Of a stretch of 64,000 nt of DNA, positions 3 to 46,234 are shown one piece after another; the stretch's first letter is position 1; every line of letters begins with the position of its first letter. The stretch spans positions 8,186-72,185 of the forward strand of contig CAILVF010000036.1 in the NCBI GenBank assembly GCA_903837605.1. The letters run 5' to 3'. The notes beneath the pieces are model-generated. The model was not told where the DNA came from and did no database searches. It saw only the letters and a list, made by a program, of their open reading frames with translations. The translations under genes and the position numbers were made by a program. The DNA comes from an uncultured Bacteroidales bacterium. GTDB taxonomy: Bacteria > Bacteroidota > Bacteroidia > Bacteroidales > FEN-979.

Positions 3-3000
3 TTGCTGTCGGTCTGGGCTGGTTCAGTTGCAAAAGGCGATCTTTCGTACCATGAGATTAACACTTCGGATGACGAGATCGGCAAACTGAATTCGAGTTT
101 TCGTTCAGTGGTTGATTCTTTCCGCGAGATCTCCGCCGTTTCAGCTTCCATGGCGGTAGGTGATTTTGAAAAGAAGGTCGCGGTGAGAGGGCCCGATGAC
201 CTCCTGGGCAGGTCGGTAAACGAGATGCTTGATAGTTTCAAGGCAGTGATCGGGCAGGCTACAAAGATTTCGCAGGGGGATTATAACGGGGAGATCAGTC
301 CCAGGAGCGATAAAGACAGCCTGGGAAAGGCTCTTCAGGTCATGACCGGGACCTTGCGTGAGAATTCAATCACGATGGGACAGCAGGACTGGCTGAAATC
401 AGGTATGGCTGAACTCAGCATGAAACTCAGCGGCGACAAATCCATCCATGATGTAACCCATGAACTGATCAAGTTTCTTGTCGGTTACCTTGACGGACAG
501 CTTGGCTTGTTTTACCTGGCGGATGAGCAGGATGAACTGGTTCTTACAGCCACTTATGCATTCCACGATCGTAAAGGTAATTTCAGCAGGCTGAAGATGG
601 GTGAAGGGCTCGTTGGACAAGCAGCCCTGGAAAAAGAGATCATCCTGTTCAGGGATGTGCAGGAGAATGCTGCCAGTCTCAATTTTGGAGTGGATGAGAA
701 GATCCCTCCCCACTTTATTATTGCCCCCCTGGTGTTTGAAAATAAGATTATAGGCGTAGTGCAGGTAGGTAAACTTGAACCGTTCACTCCTCTGCAGAAA
801 AAATTTGTCGAACAACTTCTTGAGCCTGTAGCGATATCGCTCAATACATCTACAGCCAGGGTGAAGGTAAAGCAGCTCCTCGACCAGACCCAGCAGCAGG
901 CCGAGCGTTTGCAGGTGCAGCAGGAAGAACTTCGTCAGACAAATGAAGAACTTGAAGAACAGACCAAGGCACTCAGGAGTTCCGAAGAAGCCCTTCAGGC
1001 CCAGCAGGAGGAATTAAGGGTGATCAACGAAGAGCTCCAGGAACGAACCAAAACGCTGGAACAGCAAAGAGATGACATCCGCATTAAAAACACAGAACTC
1101 ACCAAAGCACGGAATGAGATAGAAGAAAAGGCCAAGGATCTTGAATTTGCGAGCAAATACAAATCGGAATTCCTGGCGAATATGTCACATGAGCTCCGCA
1201 CTCCGCTCAACAGCATCATTGTCCTTTCTCAGTTGTTATCTGAAAACAAGAGGCAAAACCTTACCGACAAACAGATCGAGTATGCCGATACCATCAACAG
1301 CTCGGGCAGCGATCTGCTGGACCTGATCAATGAGATCCTTGACCTCAGCAAGATAGAGGCCGGCCGTATTGAGCTCCATCCCGAGACTATCGACCTGAAA
1401 GAGATATTGAACCAGATGGATATGTTTTTTAAACCCATGGTCGAAAAGAAAGGCCTCGGCTTCAACCTGCATATCGATGGGAAGGTGCCTTCAAATATCT
1501 TCGTGGATAACCAGAGGCTTCAGCAGATATTAAAGAACCTTCTTTCCAATGCGCTGAAGTTTACCGAGAAGGGATCCATTGCGCTGGAAGTAAGGAGACC
1601 GGCCGATGCGCTTGAACTAAGCGGTACGTCGCTGAAAATGGAATCCTCCCTGCTGTTCACTGTAACGGATACAGGGATAGGGATACCGAGGGATAAACTG
1701 AATATTATTTTCGAAGCCTTCCAGCAGGCCGACGGTACCACCAGCAGGCGTTTCGGTGGCACAGGACTGGGGCTCACAATTTCACGTTCTTTCGCACAGG
1801 TTATGGGAGGAGACATCCGCCTTATAAGCGAAGAAGGAAAAGGCTCTGTTTTCAGCCTTCTGCTCCCTGAGAAATATGAAGAAATCATTTCAAAGCAGGC
1901 ACACCAGAAACAAATCCAAACGCCTCCTGTTTCAATTCCTGCAGAACCAAAACACCGTCAGCCGAGGGCTTTAGCCAATGAGAACCCCCAGCATGACCAC
2001 AGGGATAACCTGCAAAAAGGGGATAAGATTTTACTGATCATCGAAGACGACCCGGCTTTTTCGAAAATCCTTTTCGACCTGGCTGAAGAGAAAGGCTATA
2101 AATGCCTGGTAGCGCAGGACGGGGAGAGTGGACTATATCTGGCCGACCTGCATGTGCCCAGCGCTATTGTGCTGGATATAGGTCTTCCGGGAATAGACGG
2201 ATGGGAGGTAATGGACAGGCTCCACAAGGATGCAAAAACAAGGCATATCCCAGTACACTTTATTTCGGCTATGGATAAGTCGAAGGAAGCCTTGCAGATG
2301 GGCGCTGTGGGATACCTGACTAAACCGGTCAGCATTGATAAACTCAGGGATGCCTTCGTGAGGATCGAAGATGTCATCTCCAAACCCATGAAAAAATTGC
2401 TGGTAGTCGATGACGATCCCGCAACTCAAATGAGCATTGTGGAACTTATAGGTAACGGAGATGTAACCACAACATCGGTTGGAGGAGGCGCCGAAGCTTA
2501 TCAGCTGCTCGAGAGAGAGAATTTCGATTGCCTGATCCTTGACCTGGGACTGAAGGATATGAGCGGATTTGAGCTGATTGAAAAAATCAGGGCAAACAAC
2601 AGGCTCGTAAACCTTCCTATCATTATTTATACCGGCAAGGACCTTTCGAGGGAGGAAGAAGACAAACTTCAAAAGTATGCCGACAGTATCATCATCAAAG
2701 GTATACGCTCGCCCGAACGCCTGCTTGCCGAGACATCGCTCTTCCTTCACAGGATAGAAGCCAATCTGCCCCAGGAAAAGCAGGATATGATCAGGATGCT
2801 ATACAGCCAGGAGGATGTTTTTCATGACCGTACAATACTGCTTGTTGATGACGATTCCCGGAATGTGTTTGCAATAACCGCAGTGCTTGAGGAGAGAGGG
2901 CTGAATGTCATCCCTGCAGGGAATGGCCGTGAAGGGATCGAAAAGCTCAGGGCCAATCCGGGGATAAACCTGGTGCTTATGGATATCATGATGCCTGAGA

Positions 3001-3194
3001 TGGACGGCTATGAAGCAATCGGGCTGATACGGAAGATGCAGAAATATGAGGACCTCCCGATCATAGCGCTTACGGCTAAGGCAATGAAGGAGGACAGGGA
3101 CCATTGTATTGAAGCAGGGGCGAATGATTACCTCGCAAAACCGGTCGACAGCCAAAAGCTGCTATCTTTGTTAAGAGTTTGGCTGTATAAGTAA
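3..3194 (+). CDS. Hybrid sensor histidine kinase (5' end outside window): three HAMP-like units - GAF - long Glx-rich coiled coil - HisKA - HATPase_c - three receiver domains
   Basis: ORF open at window edge. HAMP-like 'GDLSYHEINTSDDEIGKL','GDFEKKVAVRGPDDLLGRS','GDYNGEISPRSDKDSLGKA'. H-box 'FLANMSHELRTPLNS'. G boxes 'DTGIGIP','GGTGLGLTISR'. Receivers 'ILLIIEDD..VLDIGLPGIDG','LLVVDDD..ILDLGLKDMSG','ILLVDDD..LMDIMMPEMDG..LAKP'. Confidence 0.92.
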   Translation: MLSVWAGSVAKGDLSYHEINTSDDEIGKLNSSFRSVVDSFREISAVSASMAVGDFEKKVAVRGPDDLLGRSVNEMLDSFKAVIGQATKISQGDYNGEISPRSDKDSLGKALQVMTGTLRENSITMGQQDWLKSGMAELSMKLSGDKSIHDVTHELIKFLVGYLDGQLGLFYLADEQDELVLTATYAFHDRKGNFSRLKMGEGLVGQAALEKEIILFRDVQENAASLNFGVDEKIPPHFIIAPLVFENKIIGVVQVGKLEPFTPLQKKFVEQLLEPVAISLNTSTARVKVKQLLDQTQQQAERLQVQQEELRQTNEELEEQTKALRSSEEALQAQQEELRVINEELQERTKTLEQQRDDIRIKNTELTKARNEIEEKAKDLEFASKYKSEFLANMSHELRTPLNSIIVLSQLLSENKRQNLTDKQIEYADTINSSGSDLLDLINEILDLSKIEAGRIELHPETIDLKEILNQMDMFFKPMVEKKGLGFNLHIDGKVPSNIFVDNQRLQQILKNLLSNALKFTEKGSIALEVRRPADALELSGTSLKMESSLLFTVTDTGIGIPRDKLNIIFEAFQQADGTTSRRFGGTGLGLTISRSFAQVMGGDIRLISEEGKGSVFSLLLPEKYEEIISKQAHQKQIQTPPVSIPAEPKHRQPRALANENPQHDHRDNLQKGDKILLIIEDDPAFSKILFDLAEEKGYKCLVAQDGESGLYLADLHVPSAIVLDIGLPGIDGWEVMDRLHKDAKTRHIPVHFISAMDKSKEALQMGAVGYLTKPVSIDKLRDAFVRIEDVISKPMKKLLVVDDDPATQMSIVELIGNGDVTTTSVGGGAEAYQLLERENFDCLILDLGLKDMSGFELIEKIRANNRLVNLPIIIYTGKDLSREEEDKLQKYADSIIIKGIRSPERLLAETSLFLHRIEANLPQEKQDMIRMLYSQEDVFHDRTILLVDDDSRNVFAITAVLEERGLNVIPAGNGREGIEKLRANPGINLVLMDIMMPEMDGYEAIGLIRKMQKYEDLPIIALTAKAMKEDRDHCIEAGANDYLAKPVDSQKLLSLLRVWLYK

Positions 3195-3197
3195 GCT

Positions 3198-4043
3198 ATG
3201 AAGAAGTCGCAGGAAGAACAGCTGGAAAACCAGGATATCGAGATCAGGCTACTGATCCAGGCGATCTATGACAAGTACGGCTATGACTTCCGCAACTATT
3301 CCCAGGCTCATATCAAACGCAGGATGCTCAACCGTTTCCATCTTTCAGGCATGAGCTCCATTTCCCAGATGATCCATGAATCCCTGGTCAATCATAAATT
3401 CGTGGACCAGCTGCTGATGGACCTTTCCATCAACGTGACGGAGATGTTCAGGGATCCCTCGTTTTACAAGGCGGTGCGTGAACATGTCGTCCCTGTGCTG
3501 AAGACCTATCCTTTTATCAAGATCTGGCATGCCGGCTGTTCCAGCGGCGAGGAAGTGTATTCCATGGCCATTCTGCTGAAGGAAGAAGGTTTATACAACA
3601 GGACCCAGATCTATGCAACCGATTTCAACCCTGTCATCATCAAACAGGCGAAAGAAGGGATCTATCCTATAAACAGGATGAAGGACTTCACCCTGAACTA
3701 CCAGAGGGCGGGAGGAAAGGCTTCCTTTTCTGATTACTATACTGCGAATTACGAATCGGCCAAACTGCTGGATTCTTTCAAGAAAAACATTGTGTTTGCA
3801 ACACATAACCTGGTCACCGATTCGGTATTTGCCGAGGTCCATATGGTGGTTTGCCGCAACGTGCTCATTTATTTCGACCGCCAGCTGCAGGATAAGGTGA
3901 TCGGACTGTTCGCCGATTCCCTTACAGGAGGAGGGGTGTTATGCCTTGGATCGAAAGAAAACCTGCAGTTTTCTGGATATTACGATAACTTTGAGGGACT
4001 TGTGACCGGTGAGAGGATTTATATTAAAAAGTATAAGGTATGA
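3198..4043 (+). CDS. cheR: CheR-type protein-glutamate O-methyltransferase
   Basis: 281 aa. Has an N-terminal helical CheR_N-like region and the SAM-binding segment 'IKIWHAGCSSGEEVYSMAILL'. Also 'EMFRDPSFY' and 'CRNVLIYFD', typical of CheR. Starts 3 nt after the upstream kinase stop. Confidence 0.9.
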   Translation: MKKSQEEQLENQDIEIRLLIQAIYDKYGYDFRNYSQAHIKRRMLNRFHLSGMSSISQMIHESLVNHKFVDQLLMDLSINVTEMFRDPSFYKAVREHVVPVLKTYPFIKIWHAGCSSGEEVYSMAILLKEEGLYNRTQIYATDFNPVIIKQAKEGIYPINRMKDFTLNYQRAGGKASFSDYYTANYESAKLLDSFKKNIVFATHNLVTDSVFAEVHMVVCRNVLIYFDRQLQDKVIGLFADSLTGGGVLCLGSKENLQFSGYYDNFEGLVTGERIYIKKYKV

Positions 4044-4609
4044 CACCTGCCAGGAAATATAATGCGGTTGTTGTGGGGTCTTCGGCAGGAGGTTTGAATG
4101 CCCTGAAAACCTTGTTGCGGAACCTGAACAGGGATTTTAAATTTCCTGTGATCATTGTGCAGCATATAAGCCCTGATTCGGAAAATTACCTCATCCATAT
4201 TCTCAACGACCTGAAACGCCTTAAGGTTAAGGAAGCTGACGAAAAGGAACAGCCCCAGCCGGGCTATGCCTATGTGGCCCCGCCGAATTACCATCTCCTG
4301 GTTGAGCCCGACCAGACTTTCACCCTTACAATCGACGAAAGGGTGAATTATGCCAGGCCATCGATAGATGTGTTATTCGAAACGGCAGCTGAAGCCTACA
4401 GGGAACACCTCATCGGGATTATCCTGACCGGGGCGAATAATGACGGCAGCCTCGGGCTTAAACGGATCAAGGAGATGGGCGGACTGGCTATCGTTCAGGA
4501 CCCCGATACGGCCGAAGTGGACTCCATGCCCAAAGCAGCCATCCAGGCCTGCGCCGTGGATTACATTCTGCCGCTTGAGGAAATTTCAGCACTTTTGAAT
4601 AGTTTGTAA
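4040..4609 (+). CDS. cheB: CheB-type protein-glutamate methylesterase/glutamine deamidase, catalytic domain only (no receiver domain)
   Basis: 189 aa. Ser/His/Asp contexts 'VVVGSSAGGLNAL','IIVQHISP','LTGANNDGSLG'. ATGA start/stop overlap with cheR at 4040-4043. Confidence 0.87.
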   Translation: MTPARKYNAVVVGSSAGGLNALKTLLRNLNRDFKFPVIIVQHISPDSENYLIHILNDLKRLKVKEADEKEQPQPGYAYVAPPNYHLLVEPDQTFTLTIDERVNYARPSIDVLFETAAEAYREHLIGIILTGANNDGSLGLKRIKEMGGLAIVQDPDTAEVDSMPKAAIQACAVDYILPLEEISALLNSL

Positions 4610-4634
4610 CCGGATTGCCTTAATTATTGTGTTT

Positions 4635-6227
4635 ATGAGCCCCAAACCTAGGATACTGATAGTGGATGACAATGTAAGCAACATCATTGTCATTGAAGAA
4701 TTGCTTTCCGATCTGGATGTTGAACTTGTAAGAGCTAAATCGGGCCTGGAGGCTATCGAAAAAACAAAGCAGCTGGAATTCGCCCTCATCCTTATGGATG
4801 TGCAGATGCCGGGAATGGACGGTTTTGAAACCGTAGAGATCATCCGCCAGGATAAAAAAAATATCCTGCTCCCGATAATTTATATCACGGCAATCTATAA
4901 CGAAAATTATTACAGGACCAAGGGCATTAAGACAGGCGCTGTGGATTTTATTGCCAAACCCATTATCCCCGACCTGTTTATAGGGAAGGTCACTTTGTTT
5001 GTCAATCTGTACAAGCAACGTATTGTCCTTGAACAGGAAGTGATTAAGCGGAAAGAAGCTGAAGAGGAAATGAAAGTTGCCCGCGACCAGGCAAGGGAAG
5101 CGGCACATGCAAAGCAGCTGTTCCTTTCGACGATGAGCCACGAAATACGAACCCCTTTGAATGCCATTGTCAATACGGCTAAACTGTTGAAAGAGGAAAA
5201 CCCAAGGGAGGACCAGATAGAAGATCTCGAGATCCTTGAGTTCTCGGCCGAAAACCTCCTGCACCTGATCAACGATATACTCGACTTCTCGAAAATCGAT
5301 GCAGGCAAGATAGAGTTCGAGGCGATTGAATTCGAGATGAGAAAACTCATGAACGGGATCCACCAGAGTTTTGACTACCAGGCCACCCAGAAAGAAATTT
5401 CACTTGAGTTTATCCTTTCGCCGGATGTCCCGGATGTGATCATTGGCGATTCAGCACGCTTATCACAGATACTGATCAACCTGGTTGGCAATGCCATAAA
5501 ATTTACAGATAAGGGAAAAGTCATCGTGGAAGCCTCTTTGCTTGGAATCAGGGATAATACCGTTGATATTGTGATAAGGGTATCCGATACAGGGATAGGT
5601 ATTCCCGCTGATAAGCTGCAATTCGTGTTCGAAAGCTTTACCCAGGCCTCTTCGTCCACTACCCGCAAATACGGCGGCACCGGGCTCGGGCTGGCAATAA
5701 CCAAGAAGCTGGTTGAAATGCAGGGAGGAAAAATCGAAGTGAAAAGCAATTTAGGCCAGGGGAGCATCTTCTCGGTGACTATGCCTTTCATGCGCAGCGA
5801 GAAGACCCATCTCGACGAGGATATGCTGATGAAGGCAAGTTTCCAGAGCCTGGCAGGGTTAAGGGTTATGGTTGTTGAAGACAACCTCGTGAACCAGAAG
5901 ATCGTCTCTAAGTTTTTAATGAAGTGGGATGTGAATGTGGATGTGGCAGAGAACGGGAAAATAGCGGTTGAAAAGGCAAGGCGTAACACGTATGACCTGA
6001 TTTTAATGGACCTTCATATGCCCGAGATGAACGGGTATGATGCCACTTTCGAGATCCGGAAAATGGAAAATAATCCGAACAAAGACCTGCCGATTATCGC
6101 GCTGACAGCTTCAGCGTTTATTGAAGACCGCGAAAAGATCTATACTTACGGGATGAGCGGGTATATCATCAAGCCGTTCAATCCTTCGGAGCTGTACTGG
6201 AAGATAGCGCCTTTCATAAGGAAGTGA
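4635..6227 (+). CDS. Hybrid histidine kinase, REC - coiled coil - HisKA - HATPase_c - REC
   Basis: N-terminal receiver 'ILIVDDN..LILMDVQMPGMDG..AKP'. H-box 'FLSTMSHEIRTPLNAI'. 'DTGIGIP','GGTGLGLAITK'. C-terminal receiver 'VMVVEDN..LILMDLHMPEMNG..IKP'. ATG at 4635 preferred over GTG at 4629. Confidence 0.9.
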   Translation: MSPKPRILIVDDNVSNIIVIEELLSDLDVELVRAKSGLEAIEKTKQLEFALILMDVQMPGMDGFETVEIIRQDKKNILLPIIYITAIYNENYYRTKGIKTGAVDFIAKPIIPDLFIGKVTLFVNLYKQRIVLEQEVIKRKEAEEEMKVARDQAREAAHAKQLFLSTMSHEIRTPLNAIVNTAKLLKEENPREDQIEDLEILEFSAENLLHLINDILDFSKIDAGKIEFEAIEFEMRKLMNGIHQSFDYQATQKEISLEFILSPDVPDVIIGDSARLSQILINLVGNAIKFTDKGKVIVEASLLGIRDNTVDIVIRVSDTGIGIPADKLQFVFESFTQASSSTTRKYGGTGLGLAITKKLVEMQGGKIEVKSNLGQGSIFSVTMPFMRSEKTHLDEDMLMKASFQSLAGLRVMVVEDNLVNQKIVSKFLMKWDVNVDVAENGKIAVEKARRNTYDLILMDLHMPEMNGYDATFEIRKMENNPNKDLPIIALTASAFIEDREKIYTYGMSGYIIKPFNPSELYWKIAPFIRK

Positions 6228-9994: not shown

Positions 9995-12925
9995 ATGAGA
10001 ACAAAAGCCATACTGATAACAGCAATTGCATTGATCGTTTTCAATGCCTTCTCCCAGAAACAGGGACAGGCCCGGATAGACTCCCTTCTAACACAATTGA
10101 ACAGGTCAAAGGAAGATACGAATAAAGTTAAGCTGCTGAACGAACTGAGCCTTACAGTCAGAGAAATCAATGCCGACGAAGGGATCAGTTACGCAATACA
10201 AGCTTTGTCGCTTGCCCAAAAACTTCACTGGCAGCCAGGTGTTGCTGATGCAAATGTTGTTCTTGGCATGAGTTACTTTTATGGCAAAACCAATTATACA
10301 GGTGCGATAGACTGTTATTTGAAATCATTGAAAATCAGTGAAGAAATCCATGATAATACCAGGATCGCAAAAAGCCTGAACCGCCTTGGATTATTTTACT
10401 CCAGGTTGTCGGATTATAAGAAAGCTTTGGACTATTACCAAAGGGCATTAAACATCGCAAAGGAAGAAGGGAATAAGAATGGCATGCAAAAGATCATGTT
10501 TAATATTGGCGAGATCTATCAAAAGCAATCAGACTATCCTAAAGCATTGGAAATATTCAACCAGGCACTGAAAATAAACCAGTCTATTGGAAATAAACCG
10601 GGATGCAGCAGGGCCTTAAATGCCATCGGTTTTATTTACCGGTTAATGAAAGATTTTAAAAGAGCCCATCAGTATTGTGAAGAATCCATTAAAATGTATG
10701 AAGCAGCAGGAGATCAAATATCACTGGCTGCAGAGTTGGAAGACATAGGAGATATGTACCGGCAGCAAACCGAGTACCTTAAGGCGCTGGAATATCTCTT
10801 TAAAGCGCTGAGAATTCAGAAAGAGTTAAATGAAAGAAGAAGTATTGCTTATAATTTCGGGGTGATCGCTTACACTTATTTCAAGATCGCAACCGACAGC
10901 AATACAACCGTATTGAATAAGCTTTTTTCCGGGAATAAAAAGGCCGCTGTGAAAATATGCATGACATATGCCGACAGTTCAATAGCAATCCAGAAGGAGC
11001 TGGGAGATCTTTATTACCTGCAGGATACCTATATTTCGATGAGCCGTGCCCTGGAGCAGCTCGGCGATTACAAGGGAGCTCTTGAAAACCTGAAACAATA
11101 TAACATCATCAGTGATTCGATTTTAAATGCCGACAGGGAGAAAAAGCTCACTCAGCTCTCGATGAAGTATGAATTCGATAAAAAGCAGGCAACCGACAGT
11201 TTGAGGCATGCAGTTGAAAACAACCTGAACCAGCTCCGCCTGCAGAAGCAAAAAACATTTACCTGGGCAGGTTTTATCGGCATGGCCCTGGTCGCATTTT
11301 TACTGTTCTTCGTATTTAAAAATTACAACAACCAGCGTAAATCCAATCTGCGGTTGCAAGCCGCTCAAAAGGAGATCCTGGAACAAAAAGAACGTGCCGA
11401 ACAAAGCGAAAGGTTCAAGCAGCAGTTCCTTGCCAACATGAGTCATGAGATCCGCACTCCAATGAATGCCGTCATGGGAATGACGAACCTGTTAATCGAT
11501 AAAAATCCCCGGGCCGACCAGCAGCATTACCTGGAAGGGATAAAAAAATCCTCCGATATCCTGCTGCACATCATTAACGACATCCTGGATCTGTCTAAAA
11601 TTGAGTCCGGAAAAATGGAACTTGAAAAAACAGACTTTTCCCTGCATCAAACTATTGAACAGGTAATAGAAACCATGCGGCATAAAGCCGATGAAAAAGG
11701 ATTGCATTTGCTGAGCGATATCAGTGACAGCATTCCCGATGTGCTTATTGGTGATCCTGTACGCTTGAACCAGATCATTCTGAACCTTGCGGGAAATGCC
11801 ATTAAATTCACTGAAAAAGGAAGTGTTGAGATCAAGGTTGAATTAGCCTCCGGGGACCCATCTTCACTGCTTAATCTCAGGTTTTCAGTCATCGATACCG
11901 GCATCGGGATCGCGGAAGATAAACTTGAAACGGTCTTTGAAAGTTTTAAACAAGCCAATTCATCGGATACCAGGAAGTATGGCGGTACAGTACTGGGGTT
12001 GAGCATCAGCAGGCAGCTGGTGGAATTGTATGGAGGGGATATAAAAATAGAGAGTGAAGAAGGAGCAGGCACAACGTTCTCATTTATACTCAATTTTGAA
12101 GAAGGTTCCGCAGTAAGATTGCATAAACAACTGAATGCTCTTGCACTTATTGACGGGCACATCCTGGACGGATTGAAAATTCTGATTGCCGATGATAACG
12201 AGTATAACAGGATAGTTGCCGAAGATACGCTGAGATCAAAAGCCAATGTTGCAATAGAAACCGCATCCAACGGGAATGAAGCAATTGAGTTACTTAAAGA
12301 GACAGACTTTGACGTGATATTAATGGATGTTCAGATGCCCGAAATGAATGGTTTTGAAGCAACCGGGTTCATCCGTGCGAACTTTTCTTCACCCAAAAAA
12401 GATGTTCCGATCATTGCTTTAACGGCAAGTGTACTGAGAACCGACCTCGACAAATGCAGGCAGGCTGGTATGAACTCGTATATTCCCAAGCCGTTTAATG
12501 CATCGCAACTTATCCGCGGCATTGCCGAGGTATTGGATATTAAAATAAGAACATTGGAGAATCCCGCAGAAGCAAAGGAAAAAGCTTCATCTGACCAGGG
12601 GAGGGTAACGGATATGTCATACCTCAAAACATTCTGCGAAGGTGACGGGAAGAAAATGCAAAAGTATATCGGCATGTTTTTACAATCAGCCCCGGTTCTC
12701 TTAGAAAAAGTAAACACGGCCATTGCTGCTTCTGATTTTGAGGAGGTAGCGAATCAGCTGCATGGTTTTAAGACTAAATTTATCATGATGGGTATGAAGA
12801 ACACAGGCATGCTGTCACTCCTCCTGGAACAGAAATACAGAAGTGAATCAAGACCAGGCACATCGCATGCAGAGATTAAAATCCTGCTTGCTGATGTTGA
12901 ACGCGCGATTATTGAATTAACATAA
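9995..12925 (+). CDS. TPR-repeat sensor hybrid histidine kinase (signal peptide - ~7 TPR - TM - HisKA - HATPase_c - REC - HPt)
   Basis: Repeated 'Y.KAL.Y..(Q/K)AL.I' TPR units. TM 'FTWAGFIGMALVAFLLFFVF'. H-box 'FLANMSHEIRTPMNAV'. 'DTGIGIA'. Receiver 'ILIADDN..VILMDVQMPEMNG..PKP'. C-terminal HPt-like 'QLHGFKTKF'. Confidence 0.88.
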   Translation: MRTKAILITAIALIVFNAFSQKQGQARIDSLLTQLNRSKEDTNKVKLLNELSLTVREINADEGISYAIQALSLAQKLHWQPGVADANVVLGMSYFYGKTNYTGAIDCYLKSLKISEEIHDNTRIAKSLNRLGLFYSRLSDYKKALDYYQRALNIAKEEGNKNGMQKIMFNIGEIYQKQSDYPKALEIFNQALKINQSIGNKPGCSRALNAIGFIYRLMKDFKRAHQYCEESIKMYEAAGDQISLAAELEDIGDMYRQQTEYLKALEYLFKALRIQKELNERRSIAYNFGVIAYTYFKIATDSNTTVLNKLFSGNKKAAVKICMTYADSSIAIQKELGDLYYLQDTYISMSRALEQLGDYKGALENLKQYNIISDSILNADREKKLTQLSMKYEFDKKQATDSLRHAVENNLNQLRLQKQKTFTWAGFIGMALVAFLLFFVFKNYNNQRKSNLRLQAAQKEILEQKERAEQSERFKQQFLANMSHEIRTPMNAVMGMTNLLIDKNPRADQQHYLEGIKKSSDILLHIINDILDLSKIESGKMELEKTDFSLHQTIEQVIETMRHKADEKGLHLLSDISDSIPDVLIGDPVRLNQIILNLAGNAIKFTEKGSVEIKVELASGDPSSLLNLRFSVIDTGIGIAEDKLETVFESFKQANSSDTRKYGGTVLGLSISRQLVELYGGDIKIESEEGAGTTFSFILNFEEGSAVRLHKQLNALALIDGHILDGLKILIADDNEYNRIVAEDTLRSKANVAIETASNGNEAIELLKETDFDVILMDVQMPEMNGFEATGFIRANFSSPKKDVPIIALTASVLRTDLDKCRQAGMNSYIPKPFNASQLIRGIAEVLDIKIRTLENPAEAKEKASSDQGRVTDMSYLKTFCEGDGKKMQKYIGMFLQSAPVLLEKVNTAIAASDFEEVANQLHGFKTKFIMMGMKNTGMLSLLLEQKYRSESRPGTSHAEIKILLADVERAIIELT

Positions 12926-12973
12926 AAGCTGGCGATCTTCCGATATTCATTATTTTTACAAAAAATATAAGCT

Positions 12974-13360
12974 ATGGACCTGGATATGCCAAAGAAAATT
13001 TTCATCGTGGATGATGATACAATGCTCACTGAAGCGCTTAAGGATTATCTCACACGCAATACCCTGAATGATATCTATATTTTCAATACTGGCGAAGAAT
13101 GCCTGAATCATCTCTCCGAAAACCCTGATGTCATCATCCTGGATTATTACCTTAACAGCGTTCAGAAAGATGCTGCTAACGGGATGGAGATACTGCAGGT
13201 GATAAAAAAACATTACCCGGGTATGCATGTCATCATGCTATCCAGCCAGGAGCATTATGCAATCGCGCTTCAAACTATTCAGAAAGGCGCCGAGCAATAT
13301 GTAGTAAAGGATGAGACTGCTTTCGAAAAGATCGCTTCGCTGATCAGGGAACTCAATTAA
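12974..13360 (+). CDS. Stand-alone response-regulator receiver (CheY-like)
   Basis: 128 aa. 'KIFIVDDD','VIILDYYL' and 'VVKD' give the D-D-K receiver pattern. No output domain. Confidence 0.82.
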   Translation: MDLDMPKKIFIVDDDTMLTEALKDYLTRNTLNDIYIFNTGEECLNHLSENPDVIILDYYLNSVQKDAANGMEILQVIKKHYPGMHVIMLSSQEHYAIALQTIQKGAEQYVVKDETAFEKIASLIRELN

Positions 13361-13368
13361 CCCTCGCC

Positions 13369-13800
13369 ATGAAAACGCCTAAACACTATTCACTGGTCCT
13401 GGTCATCCTGTGTTCCGTTATTTTTTCTTCAGTTGCATCAGCACAGTTTATTACGATCGCCCGAAAAATCAAATCGATGCATTCAGGGTCGACTGATGTC
13501 GCAACAGTTATCCTTGATGCAAAAACTTTTAAAGTATACTGGGCCGTGATTGACACCCTGACCACCAATCCCAAATTTAAAATAAGCCAGAGGGATAATA
13601 CAAAACGTTTCGTGGAATTCACTGCGGGAACTTGCAAGGTTTCAATGCAGGTTGATTCACTTGCTTCTGCCTTGTCGCAGATCACGGTTTCCTCAGCTCA
13701 TGCCGACAATGCAGAAAAGCAAACAACAGATATAGCAGTGGATGTTATACAGACGGTTTGCCAAAAGCTCGGTATAAAGTGCACACAGGATAAAAAGTAA
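13369..13800 (+). CDS. Hypothetical secreted protein
   Basis: 143 aa with signal peptide 'VLVILCSVIFSSVASAQ'. No motif recognised. Tightly follows the receiver gene. Confidence 0.5.
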   Translation: MKTPKHYSLVLVILCSVIFSSVASAQFITIARKIKSMHSGSTDVATVILDAKTFKVYWAVIDTLTTNPKFKISQRDNTKRFVEFTAGTCKVSMQVDSLASALSQITVSSAHADNAEKQTTDIAVDVIQTVCQKLGIKCTQDKK

Positions 13801-13817
13801 ATCCCGTCATAGTTTCC

Positions 13818-16112
13818 ATGAACAACTACCTGAAATTCCTGGTTTTATCTGTGATCATTTTTACCTGCGGATGCGGCCACAAAAAAGATGCACAGATCAC
13901 AAACCTTCTGATGCTGAAGGGAGGGAAGACTTTTGCAGTTCCCACAGGAACAGCCGCCGACCAGTTCGTGCTGAAGAAATTTCCTGATGCAAAAATAGAA
14001 TATTACAACAGTGTGCTTGATTGTTCCATGGCTGTGAAGGATGGGAAAGCCGATGCGGCAGTCTATGACCTTCCTGTTCTGAAAAATATTGCTGCAAAAA
14101 ATGGGGGCCTCATCGTTTTAGATGAACTGCTGTTTGATGATCAGTACGGATTTGCGGTCCGCCCCGACGACAAAGCCCTGAAATCTGCAATGGACGAAGT
14201 CCTTGCCCGGTTAAAATCAGACGGCACATACCGGGAGATGCAGAAACGCTGGTTCCCCGATAAGGGGAACCCCGGCCCCATGCCTGAAATCAAATTCACA
14301 AATGAAAAAGGCGTGCTCAGATTTGGAACTGCAGCTGTAACAGAACCTATGTCCTATGTCGACAGCAGCAAGCAGGTTGTCGGATTCGATATCGAATATG
14401 CCTCCTACATTGCTAAGAAATCAGGGAAAGTCCTGGAGATAGTCAACATGGAATTCGGGGCCATGATCCCTGCCCTGATTTCCGGCAAGGTCGATATGAT
14501 CGGCGCCGGACTGTCTATCACGGAAGAAAGGGCAAAGAAAGTCCTTTTTTCTCAAAGCTACTATCCAAGCGGTATTGCTGCGGTAGTGAAAGATAACCGA
14601 GAAAAGAAAAAAGCAACAACCGAATCCAAAATGAAAACCCTCGCCGATATAAAAAACAGGCGGATAGGGGTGTTGCTTGGAAGTATCCATGACGCTTATG
14701 CAACGAAACAGTTCCCCAATGCAACGATCTTTCAGTATCCGAATCTCTCCGATCTGCTGTTTGGCCTGAACTCTGATAAAGTGGATGTGGCATTCACTGA
14801 CCAGACATCGGTTAAGGATATCTTCAGTAAAAATCCCGGGCTTGGGATCCTGTCCAAAAACATATTTACGGTTAACATCGCAGCAGGATTTGACAAGGAT
14901 AATGATCAGCTGAGAAAACAGTTCAACGCTTTTCTTAAGGAGATCAGGTCGAACGGTGTTTACAAGGACCTGGTCGACCGCTGGATGGATAAAGGGCTGG
15001 AAGAAATGCCCGGGATTAAAGGAACGAACATCAATGGCCAGCTCAAAGTCGGCGTTGTAAGTGACCTTGGAATGCCTTCCACAATAATGAAAAACGGCCG
15101 TTTGATTGGTTTTGACATTGAACTGGCCCAGCGGTTTGCAGCATATATCCACAAGGAATTCGTCCCGGTCGACCTGCAGTTCGGGAGCCTGCTTGCATCG
15201 GTCTCGACCAATAAGATTGATATCATCATGAGTTCTTTGATGGTAACCGATGAACGCAAAAAACAGATTGATTTTTCCGACCCGTATTATGAATCAGGCG
15301 TCAGCATCATTGCAAAGAAAAATAACATTGATAGTAAAACCCTTTCGGGATCAGGAACTCCTGATGAATATCCTGAAGATGAAAATGGTAATGGTAATGT
15401 CTCTTTCTTCAAAGCCGTTTCAAACAGTTTCTACAACAACATCATCCTTGAAAAAAGGTATTTGAGTATCCTTGACGGGTTAAAAGTCACTATGCTCATT
15501 TCAATCCTTGCTGCAATACTGGGAACGCTGATCGGCTCGCTGGTATGCTACATGAGGATGTCTAAAAGCAGGTTCCTTTCACGATCAGCAAGTGTGTATA
15601 TCTCCATATTGCGCGGGACACCTGTATTGGTTCTGCTGATGATCATATATTATGTTGTTTTTGCTTCGGTGAATATCAATCCGGTTGTCGTGGCCGTAAT
15701 TGCATTCTCCCTGAATTTCGGCGCTTATGTATCGGAGATGTTCAGGACTTCTATAGAAAGCATAGATAAAGGGCAGAAGGAGGCTGCAATTGCAGGAGGC
15801 TTCTCTAAAATCCAGACATTCACTTACATTATCCTCCCCCAGGCTTTGCGCCATATCCTTCCGGTCTATAAAGGGGAATTTATTTCGCTCCTCAAAATGA
15901 CCTCCATTGTAGGGTATATAGCAGTCCAGGATCTTACCAAGGCGAGCGATATTATCCGCAGCCGAACGTTTGACGCTTTTTTCCCATTGATCATGGTTGC
16001 GGTATTGTATTTATGCATTGCATGGTTGTTTACCTGGGCCCTTGGTTTGATCGAGATTTCGGTGGATCCTAAAAGAAGACGCATAAGGAGAACAGAGGAG
16101 GCAAAGCCATGA
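13818..16112 (+). CDS. Amino-acid ABC importer, substrate-binding domains fused to the permease (GlnP/HisM-type TMD); non-canonical SBD half-domain order
   Basis: 764 aa. Signal/lipobox 'IIFTCGC'. SBP_bac_3-like segments cover aa ~27-146 (C-terminal two-thirds only), ~165-390 (complete) and ~408-503 (N-terminal part only). Gly/Glu/Asn linker. The permease carries the EAA-type loop '[28 protein letters not shown]'. Confidence 0.85.
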
Positions 16113-17191
16113 TCAAAGTAAGAAACCTTTCAAAGCATTTTGGAGAACTGGTGGTCCTGAAAGATATCAGTACGGATATCAGTAAAGGAGAGGTGATCTC
16201 TGTGATAGGGCCCTCAGGAACGGGAAAAAGCACCTTCCTCCGCTGCCTCAACCTGCTGGAGGTCCCTACCGGCGGAAGCATTTTTATTGATGATGTTCCC
16301 CTGCTTGATAAACATACCGACGTGCCAAAACTAAGGCAGAAAATGGGTATGGTTTTTCAGTCGTTTAATTTGTATTCACATCTGACGGTGTTGGAAAACC
16401 TGACCATAGGCCCGGTCAAACTTTTGGGAATGAAAAAGGTGGAAGCCGATGAAAAAGCTCATGAGCTTCTTAAGATAGTGGGCCTTGCCGAAAAAGCATA
16501 CAGCTTTCCCGATGAACTCTCAGGCGGACAAAAACAAAGAGTGGCTATTGCCCGATGCATGGCCATGGAACCTGAAATCCTGCTCTTTGATGAACCTACT
16601 TCGGCCCTTGACCCGACCATGGTCAGCGAGGTGCTGGCTGTGATACGCCGACTGTCAAGGGAAGGGATGACCATGATCATCGTAACACATGAAATGGAAT
16701 TTGCCAGGAACACATCGAGCCGGGTGTTTTATATGGACGAAGGACTGATTTATGAAGAAGGAACACCTCAGCAGATCTTTGATAATCCGCAGAAAGAAAA
16801 AACAAAAGCATTCATCAACCGGATACGCAGCCTGAATTGCCATATTACAAGCAGCGATTATGACTTGTATGGCTTGCAGGGCGAAATGGAAGTATTTTGC
16901 GAAAAACATATGCTTACCAGGAGGGTCACAGGATATGTATTGCATATTGCTGAAGAGTTGCTGGTACTTCAAAAGGACCTCTCGGATGTCAGCCTCAGCC
17001 TTTCTTATTCTGAAAAAGAAGGAGATGTGGAATTGAAATGCGATAGTGCCGGGCTTCCTTTTAATCCTCTTAAGGAAGATGCCCTCGAAGATGATATCGG
17101 GCTGAAACTGATCAGGGGAAGATGCAGGAGCGTTGATTATTTCTATGAAGGAGGGAGGAATATTCTCCTTCTCAGGATCAAAGGCGAATAA
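16109..17191 (+). CDS. Amino-acid ABC transporter ATP-binding protein (GlnQ-like) with ~120-aa C-terminal extra domain
   Basis: Walker A 'GPSGTGKST'. Q-loop 'MVFQSFNL'. Signature 'LSGGQKQR'. Walker B '[12 protein letters not shown]'. H-loop 'IVTHEM'. ATGA overlap with the permease gene. Residues 241-360 lie beyond the canonical domain. Confidence 0.9.
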
Positions 17192-17342
17192 ATGCCTCCG
17201 GAAGCCTGATCAGGGTATCCTGAAATTGCGATTTTCCCGCTTTCTATTTAACAAAATTTGAAAATTAATAAATATTTAACTTAGAATGTTAGGTAATTGA
17301 TAAGGGTTTTTTATATTCGCATCCTGTTTAATATTCATTTTT

Positions 17343-20105
17343 ATGTTGATGAAGATCAGAGGTAATAGTATGACGCTTCCGGGAATAATTTTATTCCTTG
17401 TTATAGTGATCTTAGGAATAATATATGTGCATTATACCTGGAAAAGGTTTGAAAACGACAGAGCGGAAAAGGTAATGGAAATCGCACAGTCCATTGAAGC
17501 TACCTTGCCAAAAGCTGACCTGAAGATGCTTGAAGCCAAACCCGGAGATATAGCTAAACCCCAGTATACGTTGATCAAAAACATCCTGAAAGCAATAATC
17601 AGGATCGATCCCAATGTCAGGTTTGCCTACCTGTATAATGAACAGAAAGGGAAAATATATTTCTATGCTGATTCTGAAGCCGAAAATTCCCCTGATTATT
17701 CTCCTCCCGGCCAGGAATATACTGAAGCCATGCCGGAATATCTCTTGCCGTTGACAAACGGAAAGGCACTGATCGCCGGTCCTGTTTCAGACCGCTGGGG
17801 GGTATGGGTTTCTGTACTGGTTCCAATTAAAGATGGTGCAAACAGCAGTCCGTATGCGGTTTTTGGAATGGATTATAATGCAAAATCCTGGAATTCATTT
17901 TTGTTATTTGAAGTATTTCAATCCTGTGTTTTAGTGATTTTACTTCTCCTTGCATTTTTCTTTTTGCTGATAATCCAGGCTAAGAACAAATCACTAAAAA
18001 ATGATATTATAGAGCGGAAGCTGGCGGGTGAGGCGCTTTTGCAAAGCCAGGGGCGTACCCGTCTTCAGCGTAATGCAATTGCAAGGATCGCCCTTGACGA
18101 GGTTATTGCTTTCGGTTCGCTTACCCAGTCATTGAATCGGCTTACCGAAGAAGTTGCATCGGCGATCAGGGTTTCGCGCGCAAGTGTCTGGCTCTATACG
18201 GAAGATAAGGCTGCATTGCAATGCAGCTCCCTGTATGAAGCCGAAGCAAATCGCCACAGCTCGGGAATACTTTTAAAGAGCGCTGATTATCCGAGGTATT
18301 TTGAAGCTATTAAAAGGGAAAGCAGGATCAATGCCGACGAAGCACAAACTGACCTGCGAACCAGTGAATTTGCCGAGGGGTATCTTAAACCACTCGGAAT
18401 AAGTTCAATGCTGGATGCAGGAATTACCATTGAAGGTAAGCTAAAGGGAGTTGTGTGTTTTGAACATACCGGGGAGAAGCGCATCTGGCATCCTGATGAG
18501 GAATCTTTTGCAAGCACTGTGGCATCTATCGTTGCTCAGATACTTTCCAATAATGTACGCAAACTTGCAGAAGATGCACTGAGGGTCAGCGAAGAAAAAT
18601 ACCGCAATATTTTCGAAAATGTCCAGGATGTTTTTTACCAAACCGATCTTTCAGGGATTGTGCGGGAAATAAGCCCGTCCATCAAATATTTTTCACAGTT
18701 TAACAGGGAGGAAATTCTAGGATTCTCAGTCGACAAATTGTATAAAAGTCCGGAGGACAGGGATAATCTGATCAATGAAATTTTGAAAAATGGCGAACTC
18801 AGGGATTATGAACTCACCCTGAGGACAAAATCAGGCGTAACCAGGAGTGCTTCAATTAACGCAAGATTAATTTATGATGCCCAGGGTAATCCCCACCATA
18901 TCGACGGAGCCATCAGGGATATCACTGAAAGAAAACAGGCGGAAGCTGACCTGATCAAAGCTAAAGAACGTGCGGAAGAAAGCGATCGGCTTAAATCGGC
19001 GTTTCTTGCCAATATGAGCCACGAGATACGCACCCCCATGAACGGGATCCTTGGCTTTGCCGGCTTGTTGAAGGAACCCGGCCTGACCGGGGAAGATCAG
19101 CAGGAATATATAAGGATCATTGAGAAAAGCGGGGCCCGCATGCTTAATATTATCAATGACATCGTTGATATTTCAAAAATAGAATCGGGCTTGATGGAAG
19201 TTGATATTAAAGACTCTGACATCAATCATCAGATGGAGTACATCTATAATTTCTTCAGACCTGAATTTGACAGGAAGAAAATACAGTTTTCATTAAAAAA
19301 CGGTCTGCCTTCAAATGAAGCCACCATCAAAACAGACCGCGAAAAGATCTATGCCATTCTTACCAACCTGGTTAAAAATGCCAATAAATATACCAACCAT
19401 GGTTCAATAGAATTCGGGTACAATAAAAAAGATTCATTTCTTGAATTCTATGTTAAAGATACAGGCATCGGGATCCCGCTTGACAGGCAGGAAGCCATTT
19501 TCGAGCGGTTTATCCAGGCTGATATTTTCGACAAGCATGCATTGCAGGGAGCCGGGCTGGGATTGTCAATAACAAAAGCTTATGTGGAAATGCTTGGCGG
19601 TAAAATCTGGGTTGAAAGCAAAGAAGGGGAAGGTTCAACTTTCTTTTTCACTCTTCCGTATAATGCAGGGGTGCAAAAACCAACCATCGCTCCTGCTAAT
19701 GAGCATATCGTGCAAAGTACAGGGCGAATTGAAAATCTGAAGGTTTTAATTGCAGAAGACGATGAAATATCGGTAATGTTCCTGACCAAATCATTGAAGG
19801 GATTTGTTAAAGAAATTCTTATTGTAAAGACAGGTATGGAAGCTGTGGAATTTTGCAGCAATCATCCTGATACAGATCTCGTATTAATGGATATCGGGAT
19901 GCCCGAAATGAACGGATATGAAGCTACAATGAGAATACGTCAGTTCAACAAGGAAGTGGTCATTATCGCTCAAACTGCATTTGGTCTTTTAGGCGACAGG
20001 GAGAAAGCCCTGGATGCCGGATGCGATGATTATATTTCAAAGCCGATAGAAGGAGATTCATTAATAAGGCTGATACACAAATATTTCAATAATCAAACAG
20101 ATTAA
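17343..20105 (+). CDS. Sensor hybrid histidine kinase (TM - extracytoplasmic domain - TM - GAF - PAS - HisKA - HATPase_c - REC)
   Basis: Two TM segments ('LPGIILFLVIVILGIIYV','VLVILLLLAFFFLLII'). PAS 'YRNIFENVQDVFYQTD'. H-box 'FLANMSHEIRTPMNGILGF'. 'DTGIGIP','GAGLGLSITK'. Receiver 'VLIAEDD..LVLMDIGMPEMNG..SKP'. Confidence 0.9.
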   Translation: MLMKIRGNSMTLPGIILFLVIVILGIIYVHYTWKRFENDRAEKVMEIAQSIEATLPKADLKMLEAKPGDIAKPQYTLIKNILKAIIRIDPNVRFAYLYNEQKGKIYFYADSEAENSPDYSPPGQEYTEAMPEYLLPLTNGKALIAGPVSDRWGVWVSVLVPIKDGANSSPYAVFGMDYNAKSWNSFLLFEVFQSCVLVILLLLAFFFLLIIQAKNKSLKNDIIERKLAGEALLQSQGRTRLQRNAIARIALDEVIAFGSLTQSLNRLTEEVASAIRVSRASVWLYTEDKAALQCSSLYEAEANRHSSGILLKSADYPRYFEAIKRESRINADEAQTDLRTSEFAEGYLKPLGISSMLDAGITIEGKLKGVVCFEHTGEKRIWHPDEESFASTVASIVAQILSNNVRKLAEDALRVSEEKYRNIFENVQDVFYQTDLSGIVREISPSIKYFSQFNREEILGFSVDKLYKSPEDRDNLINEILKNGELRDYELTLRTKSGVTRSASINARLIYDAQGNPHHIDGAIRDITERKQAEADLIKAKERAEESDRLKSAFLANMSHEIRTPMNGILGFAGLLKEPGLTGEDQQEYIRIIEKSGARMLNIINDIVDISKIESGLMEVDIKDSDINHQMEYIYNFFRPEFDRKKIQFSLKNGLPSNEATIKTDREKIYAILTNLVKNANKYTNHGSIEFGYNKKDSFLEFYVKDTGIGIPLDRQEAIFERFIQADIFDKHALQGAGLGLSITKAYVEMLGGKIWVESKEGEGSTFFFTLPYNAGVQKPTIAPANEHIVQSTGRIENLKVLIAEDDEISVMFLTKSLKGFVKEILIVKTGMEAVEFCSNHPDTDLVLMDIGMPEMNGYEATMRIRQFNKEVVIIAQTAFGLLGDREKALDAGCDDYISKPIEGDSLIRLIHKYFNNQTD

Positions 20106-20187
20106 TCCTGAAATATATCTTGTTGTTTGACAAACATCTCTTTAACTTTGAAGATGGGTTTTTGGGGTTTCCGAAAAATTGTTCAAT

Positions 20188-21330
20188 ATGAAAACAGAGC
20201 AGAGCGTATTTTCAGTAGAAAAAGGATGGGTGAGGAAAAGCGAGAGCGCACTTGGTAAATTGGCAGGCCTTGTTTTCCTGTATGGCAATAAAGACCTCCT
20301 TAAAGAACAACTTCATATTGATCATGTGAAAAAGGAATACCCAAATGCCCAGGTCATCGGTTGTTCTACTTCCGGCGAGATCTGCCAGGAAGAGGTCTTT
20401 AACAACAGTATTGTTTGCACGGCAGTTTGGTTTGAAAAGACCATTGTCGAAATTGCAGCCGAACATATCGGTTCTATGGATGACAGCTTCGTGATCGGGG
20501 AAAAACTGGCAGACCGGCTCGACAAGGAACAGCTGGTGCATATCATGATCCTTTCCGACGGCCTGAATATCAACGGTAGTGAACTTACCAAAGGGCTGAA
20601 CAAACGGCTTGGTGAAAGGATCCCTGTTACCGGAGGTTTAGCAGGGGATCAGGCCAACTTTAACGAAACCCTAATTGTGCATAACAGCACCGGCCGGAGC
20701 AACATTATCCTCGCAATAGGGTTCTATGGGAAAGACTTAAGCGTAGGATACGGATCAATGGGAGGATGGGATTCGTTTGGTGTCGACAGGGAGGTTACCC
20801 GGTCAAAAGGAAATATCCTGTATGAACTGGATGGACTGCCGGCCCTGGAACTTTATAAACGGTACCTTGGCAGCCACGCCGCTGATCTCCCGGCTTCGGC
20901 CCTGCTGTTTCCCCTCAGCCTCCGAATGCAGGGATCTGAAACGGCTCTTGTGCGTACCGTCTTGTCGGTTAATGAAGAGGATGGGAGCATGGTTTTTGCC
21001 GGAGATATTCCCCAGGGAGAACATGTTCGCCTAATGAAGGCGAATTTTGAACGATTACTTGACGGGGCTAACGGGGCAGCAGAAATGATGAAGACAAGCC
21101 TCCGAAACCTGACTCCTGACCTGGCTATACTGATCAGTTGCGTAGGCCGTAAACTTGTATTAAAACTGAGAGTGGAAGAAGAACTGGAACGTGTTCGTGA
21201 AGTAACCGGAAATTCAACGGTATTAACAGGCTTCTACTCCTACGGGGAAATTTGCCCCACGAAACCGTTTGTGAACCATTGTGAACTGCATAATCAAACC
21301 ATGACGATCACTGCTTTCAAGGAAAATTAA
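20188..21330 (+). CDS. FIST-domain sensory protein (FIST_N + FIST_C)
   Basis: ~380 aa. 'AQVIGCSTSGEI' and the C-terminal 'FYSYGEI' are characteristic FIST motifs. ATG at 20188 preferred over TTG at 20179. Confidence 0.75.
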   Translation: MKTEQSVFSVEKGWVRKSESALGKLAGLVFLYGNKDLLKEQLHIDHVKKEYPNAQVIGCSTSGEICQEEVFNNSIVCTAVWFEKTIVEIAAEHIGSMDDSFVIGEKLADRLDKEQLVHIMILSDGLNINGSELTKGLNKRLGERIPVTGGLAGDQANFNETLIVHNSTGRSNIILAIGFYGKDLSVGYGSMGGWDSFGVDREVTRSKGNILYELDGLPALELYKRYLGSHAADLPASALLFPLSLRMQGSETALVRTVLSVNEEDGSMVFAGDIPQGEHVRLMKANFERLLDGANGAAEMMKTSLRNLTPDLAILISCVGRKLVLKLRVEEELERVREVTGNSTVLTGFYSYGEICPTKPFVNHCELHNQTMTITAFKEN

Positions 21331-21340
21331 TTCCTCCGAT

Positions 21341-36100: not shown

Positions 36101-36156
36101 CGCTATTTATCATTCCTGCATTCTATACGTTCTTATCCCGGGATATAAAAAAATGA
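33107..36156 (+). pseudogene. RND (AcrB/HAE1-type) efflux permease, reading frame interrupted at an A7 tract (ORFs 33107..33658 and 33655..36156)
   Basis: The 183-aa N-terminal piece ('SIKRPVLAIVFSLLIV..') and the 833-aa remainder ('MRLWLDPYKMA..') together give ~1016 aa of contiguous AcrB-like sequence. The frames differ by -1 at ggcgAAAAAAAtattcgATGagg. Confidence 0.85.
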
Positions 36157-39720: not shown

Positions 39721-39725
39721 GAGCC

Positions 39726-46009: not shown

Positions 46010-46234
46010 TTATCCGGGTCTGGATCTTTCTTCTTCGACTAATAACCTCATCGTTTCCTTCGCTTCTTCCTCATCCACTTTCTGGATGGCAAAGCCGGCA
46101 TGCAGCATCACATAATCCCCTGCTTTTATATCTTCGAGAAGCAAAAGGCTTGCATGGTATTCAGTGTCTTCAATCATCACAAGGGCCGTGGCCCCTTCAA
46201 CACGTATTACTTTCGCAGGTATGGCTAAACACAT
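46010..46234 (-). CDS. hypC: Hydrogenase assembly chaperone HypC
   Basis: 74 aa with N-terminal 'MCLAIPAKV'. Confidence 0.92.
   Translation of the reverse strand: MCLAIPAKVIRVEGATALVMIEDTEYHASLLLLEDIKAGDYVMLHAGFAIQKVDEEEAKETMRLLVEEERSRPG

Follow-up and report, generated by a model that had tools for sequence, protein, structure and literature searches.

What do a CheR-type methyltransferase and a CheB methylesterase modify when they are encoded beside a histidine kinase? The question is raised by a stretch of 64,000 nucleotides from an uncultured Bacteroidales bacterium (assembly GCA_903837605.1, contig CAILVF010000036.1, positions 8,186 to 72,185 of the forward strand), which we call the window. 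A hybrid sensor histidine kinase at its left edge is followed by cheR, cheB, and a second hybrid kinase, and a Pfam scan covering 34 of the 53 non-overlapping open reading frames (ORFs) of the window found no methyl-accepting chemotaxis protein (MCP), CheA, or CheW among them. The first kinase, which has no Pfam match to the MCPsignal domain at E<0.01, unites sensor and histidine kinase functions in one protein, with HAMP (residues 34-78), GAF (146-280), a coiled signalling helix, HisKA (387-454), HATPase (502-623), and three REC (receiver) domains in this order. We propose that the coiled segment, flanked by GAF and HisKA and built on a repeat that stops ~35 residues ahead of the phosphorylated His396, is probably a methyl-accepting signalling helix of the kind found in hybrid histidine kinases of the RsbK, CfcA, and MAC2 (methyl-accepting coiled-coil) types. 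An earlier note on this DNA had named the coil as the most plausible target of the adjacent CheR and CheB, a view that homology to RsbK and comparative genomics now support.

The translation given in that note for window positions 918-1085 of the forward strand was an exact match, and the tandem 28-residue duplication described there is real, but its frame was slightly off. The units as first delimited share 14 of 28 residues, and the best frame lies nine residues upstream, where self-comparison at offset 28 gave 17 of 28 identities between residues 297-324 and 325-352; all other offsets from 1 to 49 gave at most 11 of 28. The value of 17 was reached by none of 5000 full shuffles and by none of 5000 shuffles that kept each residue at its heptad position, so the 28-residue period exceeds what composition or a 7-residue pattern would produce. 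The DNA of the two units is identical at 44 of 84 positions and the third codon positions match in only 9 of 28 codons, which is at chance; a recent DNA duplication is thus ruled out, and the repeat is an ancient one that was kept by selection on the protein. Each unit holds two EEL heptads, E308-E309-L310 and E315-E316-L317 in the first and E336-E337-L338 and E343-E344-L345 in the second.

In the AlphaFold2 monomer model, one helix (model residues 124-275) starts as the C-terminal helix of GAF, makes up the coil, and ends as DHp helix 1, where His396 lies, with a predicted local distance difference test score of 91-96 over the coil and no hairpin. Taking Leu as d, the d positions from 303 to 380 are Leu or Ile (L, I, or V at 359, 366, 373, and 380), and the register runs unbroken into the DHp domain, with L391 at a, M394 at d, L398 at a, and His396 at f. 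Position a is polar (Q, N, T/S/A, and E/Q, recurring every 28 residues), and the conserved g residues are polar too. By this heptad pattern the Glu-Glu pairs 308-309, 315-316, 336-337, and 343-344 occupy b and c and would point outward in a parallel dimer, so this part of the earlier proposal, that recurring Glx pairs line one face of the coil, stands for glutamate. It does not stand for the Gln-Gln pairs 306-307 and 334-335, which fall at g and a on the interface side and for that reason are probably structural and not modification sites. We rejected an antiparallel hairpin of the two units, as in the methylation helices of MCPs, given the single straight helix of the model and indels of 7-28 residues on one side only. 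Pfam coiled-coil matches to the segment (CC149, ATG14, and others) were weak, generic, and all below cut-off, and we dismissed them as meaningless.

Searching with this cheR-linked coil as query (tblastn, one genome per species) recovered 80 homologous loci in at least 10 phyla, including Bacteroidota, Pseudomonadota, Cyanobacteria, Bacillota, Actinomycetota, Gemmatimonadota, Nitrospirota, Chloroflexota, Planctomycetota, and Bdellovibrionota. A CheR gene adjoins the kinase in 49 of them, 47 times directly downstream on the same strand; the exceptions are L039, where it lies upstream, and L011 (Nostoc), where it is part of a convergent fusion gene. CheB accompanies CheR in 35 of the 49 loci and, judged by its short ORF, is receiver-less in all of these but the L011 fusion. 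The other 14 (L009, L013, L022, L030, L036, L041-L043, L057, L058, L060, L062, L070, and L076) have CheR only, and permissive thresholds, too, revealed no CheB gene within 8 kb; Bacillales, Paenibacillus, Pedobacter, some Burkholderiales, Nitrospira, and Calothrix are among these loci, which match the "orphan methyltransferase" status of RsbM. The N-terminal sensor modules of the cheR-linked kinases vary among CHASE3, 4HB (four-helix bundle), poly-HAMP, and PAS.

The length of the coil follows a simple rule. Counted from the last strand motif of GAF, the distance to the phosphorylated His could be measured in 71 loci, of which 70 fit 117+7n, with values of 117, 124, 131, 138, 145, 152, and 159 (145 in the window kinase), and all indels in the coil alignment are multiples of seven. 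Because the coil varies by whole heptads only, the register between GAF and kinase is kept, which supports the suggestion that the duplication could set coil length and register. Length also separates the loci by gene content: at a distance of at least 131, cheR is present in 46-47 of 53 loci, usually with cheB, whereas at 117 or 124 it is present in 1 of 18 (Fisher p ~5e-10), and the contrast recurs within Bacteroidota, Actinomycetota, and Betaproteobacteria. The short forms, among them Streptomyces poly-HAMP kinases of ~1840 residues, lack exactly 21 or 28 residues, i.e., one unit, and the cheR-linked relatives have at least two 28-residue units with two xEEL heptads in each. Within the window, the EEL-heptad coil is absent from the other four histidine kinases, the REC-HK-REC protein (HK, histidine kinase) included, so that the only kinase with such a coil is the one beside cheR. 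In one relative, a Beggiatoa sp. PS fragment (P0105), ~7 near-identical heptads have been added (QNQKETL QIQTTEL QNQKAEL QSQTEEL ...), and the helix can therefore grow by single heptads too. The upstream variant L039 (543-1985 and 3568-3843), with CheR-CheB ahead of the kinase, carries its coil after a PAS-like region and not after GAF.

The same coil appears where the enzymes and the kinase are one polypeptide. L011 encodes a CheB-CheR-coil-PAS-kinase fusion, of the MAC1 type, and a protein-database search starting from it returned >7500 such proteins. In 45 diverse fusions the region after CheR reads NEEIxSSNEELQSTNEELETAKEELQSTNEELxTxNEEL, with invariant Glu-Glu pairs. Aligned with hhalign, this coil and that of the cheR-linked kinases matched with a probability of 95.1% (E=3.4e-8, 65 columns), and reversed or column-shuffled controls reached at most 1.4%; besides the kinase core, the coil is the sole element that the fusion and separate-gene architectures have in common. 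L011 itself (10001-10339 and 13101-17372, minus strand) places a poly-HAMP kinase with a two-unit coil and no cheR of its own convergent to the MAC1-type fusion, whose CheB-CheR enzymes might act in trans on this neighbour. Matches of the protein-database searches (e.g., P0030, P0105, P0159, and P0164) are annotated with the Pfam accessions PF28159.1, PF28019.1, and PF28256.1, all more recent than the Pfam release used for our scan. PF28159.1, assigned to both MAC2-type and MAC1-type proteins, may be a recent Pfam model of this coil.

Column conservation was counted over the 49 cheR-linked sequences. Leu at d is almost invariant (L310 and L317 in 47-48 sequences); the a positions hold Q307 (39), N314 (47), T/S/A/G 321, E/Q 328, Q335 (39), N342 (all 49), and A/T/S 349, and at g, conservation of Q306, Q320, S327, and Q334 is 86-98%. 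Among the acidic residues, conservation is highest for the c-position glutamates, each directly before a Leu (E309 in 47, E316 in 41, and E337 in 46 sequences; at 344, 27 sequences have E and 17 have Q), and the b-position glutamates are less constant, with Ala frequent in the proteobacterial clade. The expectation that the Glx pairs would be conserved where cheR and cheB are kept thus holds for the second Glu of each pair and partly fails for the first. The heptad 356-362 is missing from 29 of the 49 relatives. We also considered the E/Q interchange at 344 as a signature of CheB deamidation and set it aside as weak evidence, since the Q forms are largely one, mainly proteobacterial, group in which other positions co-vary.

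Several observations weigh against a methyl-accepting role. The equivalents of E309 and E344 are equally conserved in one-unit relatives that have no CheR, including Streptomyces kinases that are presumably OsaA-like; conservation alone is therefore no proof of methylation, and the motif must have a structural role independent of it. In the proteobacterial clade linked to cheR and cheB, several b-position glutamates are replaced by Ala and the SEE stretch by SQA. By inspection, no Glx pair in residues 297-352 has small residues on both sides, as in the consensus for MCP methylation sites reportedly defined by Alexander and Zhulin in 2007, [ASTG][ASTG]xx[EQ][EQ]xx[ASTG][ASTG]. Because the query coil itself came from a cheR-linked kinase, the association between coil and cheR is partly a clade effect, and cheR is absent from six long-coil loci. 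As the model is that of a monomer, both the exposure of the b and c glutamates and the dimer interface are read from the heptad pattern. Finally, methylation of such a helix has been shown only for RsbK and RsbM of B. cereus (PMC4574943).

Part of this evidence would suit a coil that is a linker for distance and register only, with CheR and CheB acting elsewhere: on another part of the kinase, on the neighbouring REC-HK-REC protein, or on a receptor encoded outside the window. A mechanical linker would need the strict heptad quantisation of length that we found. The motif, c-position glutamates included, persists in relatives lacking cheR and departs from the MCP consensus, and the N-terminus of the kinase lies beyond the window. 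However, a linker would not account for the coil and kinase core being all that CheB-CheR fusions share with the MAC2 type, nor for cheR linkage tracking the extra coil unit across kinases with different N-terminal sensor modules; RsbK is methylated on the equivalent helix (PMC4574943), and the scanned ORFs hold no MCP. Taking both sides together, we consider the linker explanation unlikely. A role for the extra 28-residue unit mainly as a docking platform for CheR, CheB, or the REC domains of the kinase, and not as the modified site, seems to us very improbable: the REC domain of RsbK does interact in part with its signalling helix (S-helix), more strongly when RsbM is co-expressed (PMC4574943), and in the window the kinase carries three REC domains where CheB carries none, but docking and modification are compatible, the RsbK helix itself is methylated (PMC4574943), and the invariant Glu-Glu pairs of the fusions suggest substrate residues. 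That the repeat is a meaningless chance or compositional trait of a Glu/Gln-rich coiled coil is refuted, for although spurious internal similarity is common in coiled coils and identity is raised at offsets 7, 14, 21, and 35 too, 17 of 28 was never reached by the heptad-preserving shuffles and the two-unit pattern is kept position by position across at least 10 phyla.

If the coil is a methyl-accepting helix, as we favour, it would work as follows. The kinase dimer would form a marginally stable parallel coiled coil whose exposed glutamates at b and especially c (E309, E316, E337, and E344) would receive methyl groups from the CheR of the same operon and lose them again to the receiver-less CheB. 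Loss of their negative charge could alter the stability or packing of the helix or, alternatively, the way in which the REC domains of the kinase dock, a route proposed for RsbK; either would shift the balance between the on and off states of the kinase and bias the relay through the REC-HK-REC protein, so that the phosphorelay would gain an input for adaptation or memory. It is possible, if rather doubtful, that gain of a 28-residue module with two xEEL heptads, which leaves the register intact, is what made a CheR-less signalling helix tunable by CheR and CheB, that the number of modules or heptads sets the number of methylation sites, and that feedback, CheB having no receiver domain, comes from the three REC domains docking on the methylated helix. 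Should this hold, an adaptation circuit wired unlike that of chemotaxis would operate in non-flagellated Bacteroidales.

The features of the locus are collected in Table 1.

Table 1. Features of the coil and of the four-gene cluster, in window coordinates
Feature	Positions	Strand	Description
Hybrid sensor histidine kinase	3..3194	+	ORF open at the left window edge, N-terminus cut, at least 1063 residues
Single continuous helix	789..1244	+	Residues 263-414; AlphaFold2, 48-sequence alignment, monomer model
Repeat unit 1	891..974	+	Residues 297-324, QQQAERLQVQQEELRQTNEELEEQTKAL; best-frame self-comparison, 17/28
Repeat unit 2	975..1058	+	Residues 325-352, RSSEEALQAQQEELRVINEELQERTKTL; offset-28 self-comparison
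Degenerate coil continuation	1059..1187	+	Residues 353-395; heptad register held into DHp
CheR-type protein-glutamate O-methyltransferase	3198..4043	+	281 aa; Pfam CheR_N + CheR
CheB methylesterase, catalytic domain only	4040..4609	+	189 aa; Pfam CheB_methylest 10-185
REC-HisKA-HATPase-REC hybrid kinase	4629..6227	+	Pfam; final gene of the tight four-gene cluster

The four genes lie on one strand, with a gap of 4 nt between kinase and cheR, an overlap of cheR and cheB, and a gap of 20 nt before the REC-HK-REC gene, whose product is likely the phosphorelay partner of the window kinase. In the closest Bacteroidales relatives (L003, 12327-13949, and L006, 12292-13899), a homologous REC-HK-REC gene of 541 aa stands between the kinase and cheR, so the gene content is equal and the order differs, the window gene coming after cheB. 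The CheR protein is closest in the PDB to B. subtilis CheR (5ftw, E=1.6e-32) and has intact AGCSSGEE and CRNVLIYF motifs for binding S-adenosylmethionine, with a score of 86.9 bits against the NCBIfam CheR cut-off of 435. CheB matches PDB entry 3sft (E=2.8e-35), keeps the GSSAGG, VQHI, and NNDG motifs of the Ser, His, and Asp regions, and covers only positions 154-332 of the 340-position NCBIfam CheB model; the match being limited to the catalytic half of full-length models, it has no receiver domain. Compared with NCBIfam, neither the kinase nor CheR nor CheB reached the cut-off of an equivalog. A look-up of the window CheR found matches only on metagenome contigs of 1-1.6 kb, none with upstream sequence that completes the kinase.

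Elsewhere in the window, a dense signalling cluster (9995-23623, plus strand) encodes three kinases (TPR-HK-REC-Hpt, GAF-PAS-HK-REC, and PAS-HK-REC), all without the EEL coil, together with a lone receiver, a FIST protein, and an ABC permease that carries fused solute-binding domains and is accompanied by its ATPase. A gene for an AcrB-type RND transporter (33107-36153, plus strand) lies in two frames, 33107-33655 matching Pfam ACR_tran 2-180 and 33655-36153 matching ACR_tran 184-1020, and is split directly after a run of seven A at ~33643-33649; the split is a frameshift, from an assembly error or in a pseudogene. The small and large subunits of a NiFe hydrogenase and the maturation protein HypF (38611-41441 and 46228-48507) suggest that the host is an anaerobic, hydrogen-using organism.

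In bacterial chemotaxis, the textbook device for memory is the reversible methylation of glutamate, and the MAC family puts this device on ordinary two-component kinases, for stress in the case of RsbK and for biofilm and cyclic di-GMP in the case of CfcA. The coil as a methylation target is already anticipated in the literature, and the locus is no new kind of system. New here is an uncultured member of the Bacteroidales with a methyltransferase and a receiver-less esterase, and possible additions are the whole-heptad steps in coil length, the association of cheR with 21-28 extra residues, and four candidate sites (E309, E316, E337, and E344). Our findings overturn nothing and are of use for annotation and for the design of experiments.

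The MAC1 and MAC2 classes, which reportedly go back to Wuichet and Zhulin in 2010, are used in MiST3 (PMC6943060). MAC proteins combine receptor and kinase in one protein, MAC1 incorporating CheB and CheR and MAC2 being associated with them (PMC6943060; bioRxiv 10.1101/2022.05.07.491037), and no Pfam model exists for the class (PMC6943060). The window locus has exactly the MAC2 arrangement, with a kinase and separate, adjoining CheR and CheB genes on the same strand, and its coil aligns with that of MAC1 (hhalign, 95%); on this architecture and on the similarity to the fusion-protein coil we would assign it to MAC2. A 2022 preprint terms MAC proteins experimentally uncharacterised (10.1101/2022.05.07.491037), a label that overlooks the RsbK work.

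The OsaA-like poly-HAMP/GAF hybrid kinases of Streptomyces share the GAF-coil-HisKA core, the heptad register, and the Q, N, and L positions of the window kinase, but they have one unit, with a coil 21 residues shorter (28 in other cheR-less relatives), and neither cheR nor cheB lies within 8 kb of them. Chemoreceptors of the MCP type, Tsr and Tar for example, present Glx pairs every 7 residues, at b and c and facing outward, for modification by CheR and CheB, a pattern like that of the window coil. In MCPs the modified residue is the second of the pair, and in the window coil it is likewise the second, at c, that is better conserved. However, the helices of MCPs pack into an antiparallel four-helix bundle, and small residues surround their sites, whereas the window kinase would contribute a single parallel helix per subunit that runs into the kinase, and MCPs signal through CheW to a separate CheA, neither of which was among the scanned ORFs.

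Another member is encoded by the cfcABCDE genes of P. putida. CfcA (PP_3761) is a CHASE3/GAF hybrid kinase with His496 as its phosphorylated residue, and cfcB and cfcC encode a CheR and a CheB that take no part in chemotaxis (PMC4951495). The gene set is the same as in the window, a hybrid kinase and then CheR and CheB, and two P. putida-group loci among our 80 (L026 and L029) have a two-unit coil, cheR-cheB directly downstream, and a His at position 496 when counted from a Met, as in CfcA. Differences from the window are also evident: in the proteobacterial clade the second unit reads QQAELEQTNxQLEE and the SEE stretch is SQA, the P. putida-group loci lack one heptad before DHp, and the output of CfcA is the diguanylate cyclase CfcR. 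The papers that we read report no methylation of CfcA.

A member that has been studied by experiment is RsbK of B. cereus, a kinase with the order CHASE3-HAMP-GAF-S-helix-HK-CA-REC, whose S-helix is methylated by RsbM, a CheR-type enzyme encoded beside it, as seen in vitro with 14C-SAM (S-adenosylmethionine). Methylation acts together with the C-terminal REC domain to hold RsbK off, the REC domain interacting partly with the S-helix, and 127 RsbK-like kinases were counted in 10 phyla (PMC4574943). Window kinase and RsbK have the order sensor-HAMP-GAF-S-helix-HisKA-HATPase-REC in common, followed in both cases by a CheR-type gene. On the other hand, RsbM is an orphan methyltransferase without an esterase and the window locus has CheB; RsbK has one REC domain and signals to a PP2C/sigma-B partner switch, and the kinase of the window bears three such domains and is joined by a second hybrid kinase; and the Bacillales coil consists of repeated SEELQxQ heptads in place of two 28-residue units and is 14-21 residues shorter. 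The window ORFs that were scanned include no SpoIIE/PP2C protein, and with REC-HK-REC as the partner the locus is a relative of the RsbKMY module and not a member of it. A protein-database search seeded with Bacillales loci returned mostly short fragments and not B. cereus RsbK, and a literature search found no residue numbers for its methylated sites. Homology was gauged through two loci, L060 (Mesobacillus) and L076 (Planococcaceae), in which a kinase, CheR only, and a REC-PP2C regulator make up an RsbK-RsbM-RsbY-type module. The window coil retrieves these two at 50% identity (tblastn, E=2e-23 and 2e-21). The RsbK sites are reportedly Glu439 and Glu446, 66 and 59 residues before His505. In L060 and L076 each of the positions 66 and 59 residues ahead of the His holds the second Glu of a SEEL heptad, the two heptads being consecutive. 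In the window kinase the position 59 residues ahead of His396 is that of E337, which is the second Glu in the QQEEL of unit 2.

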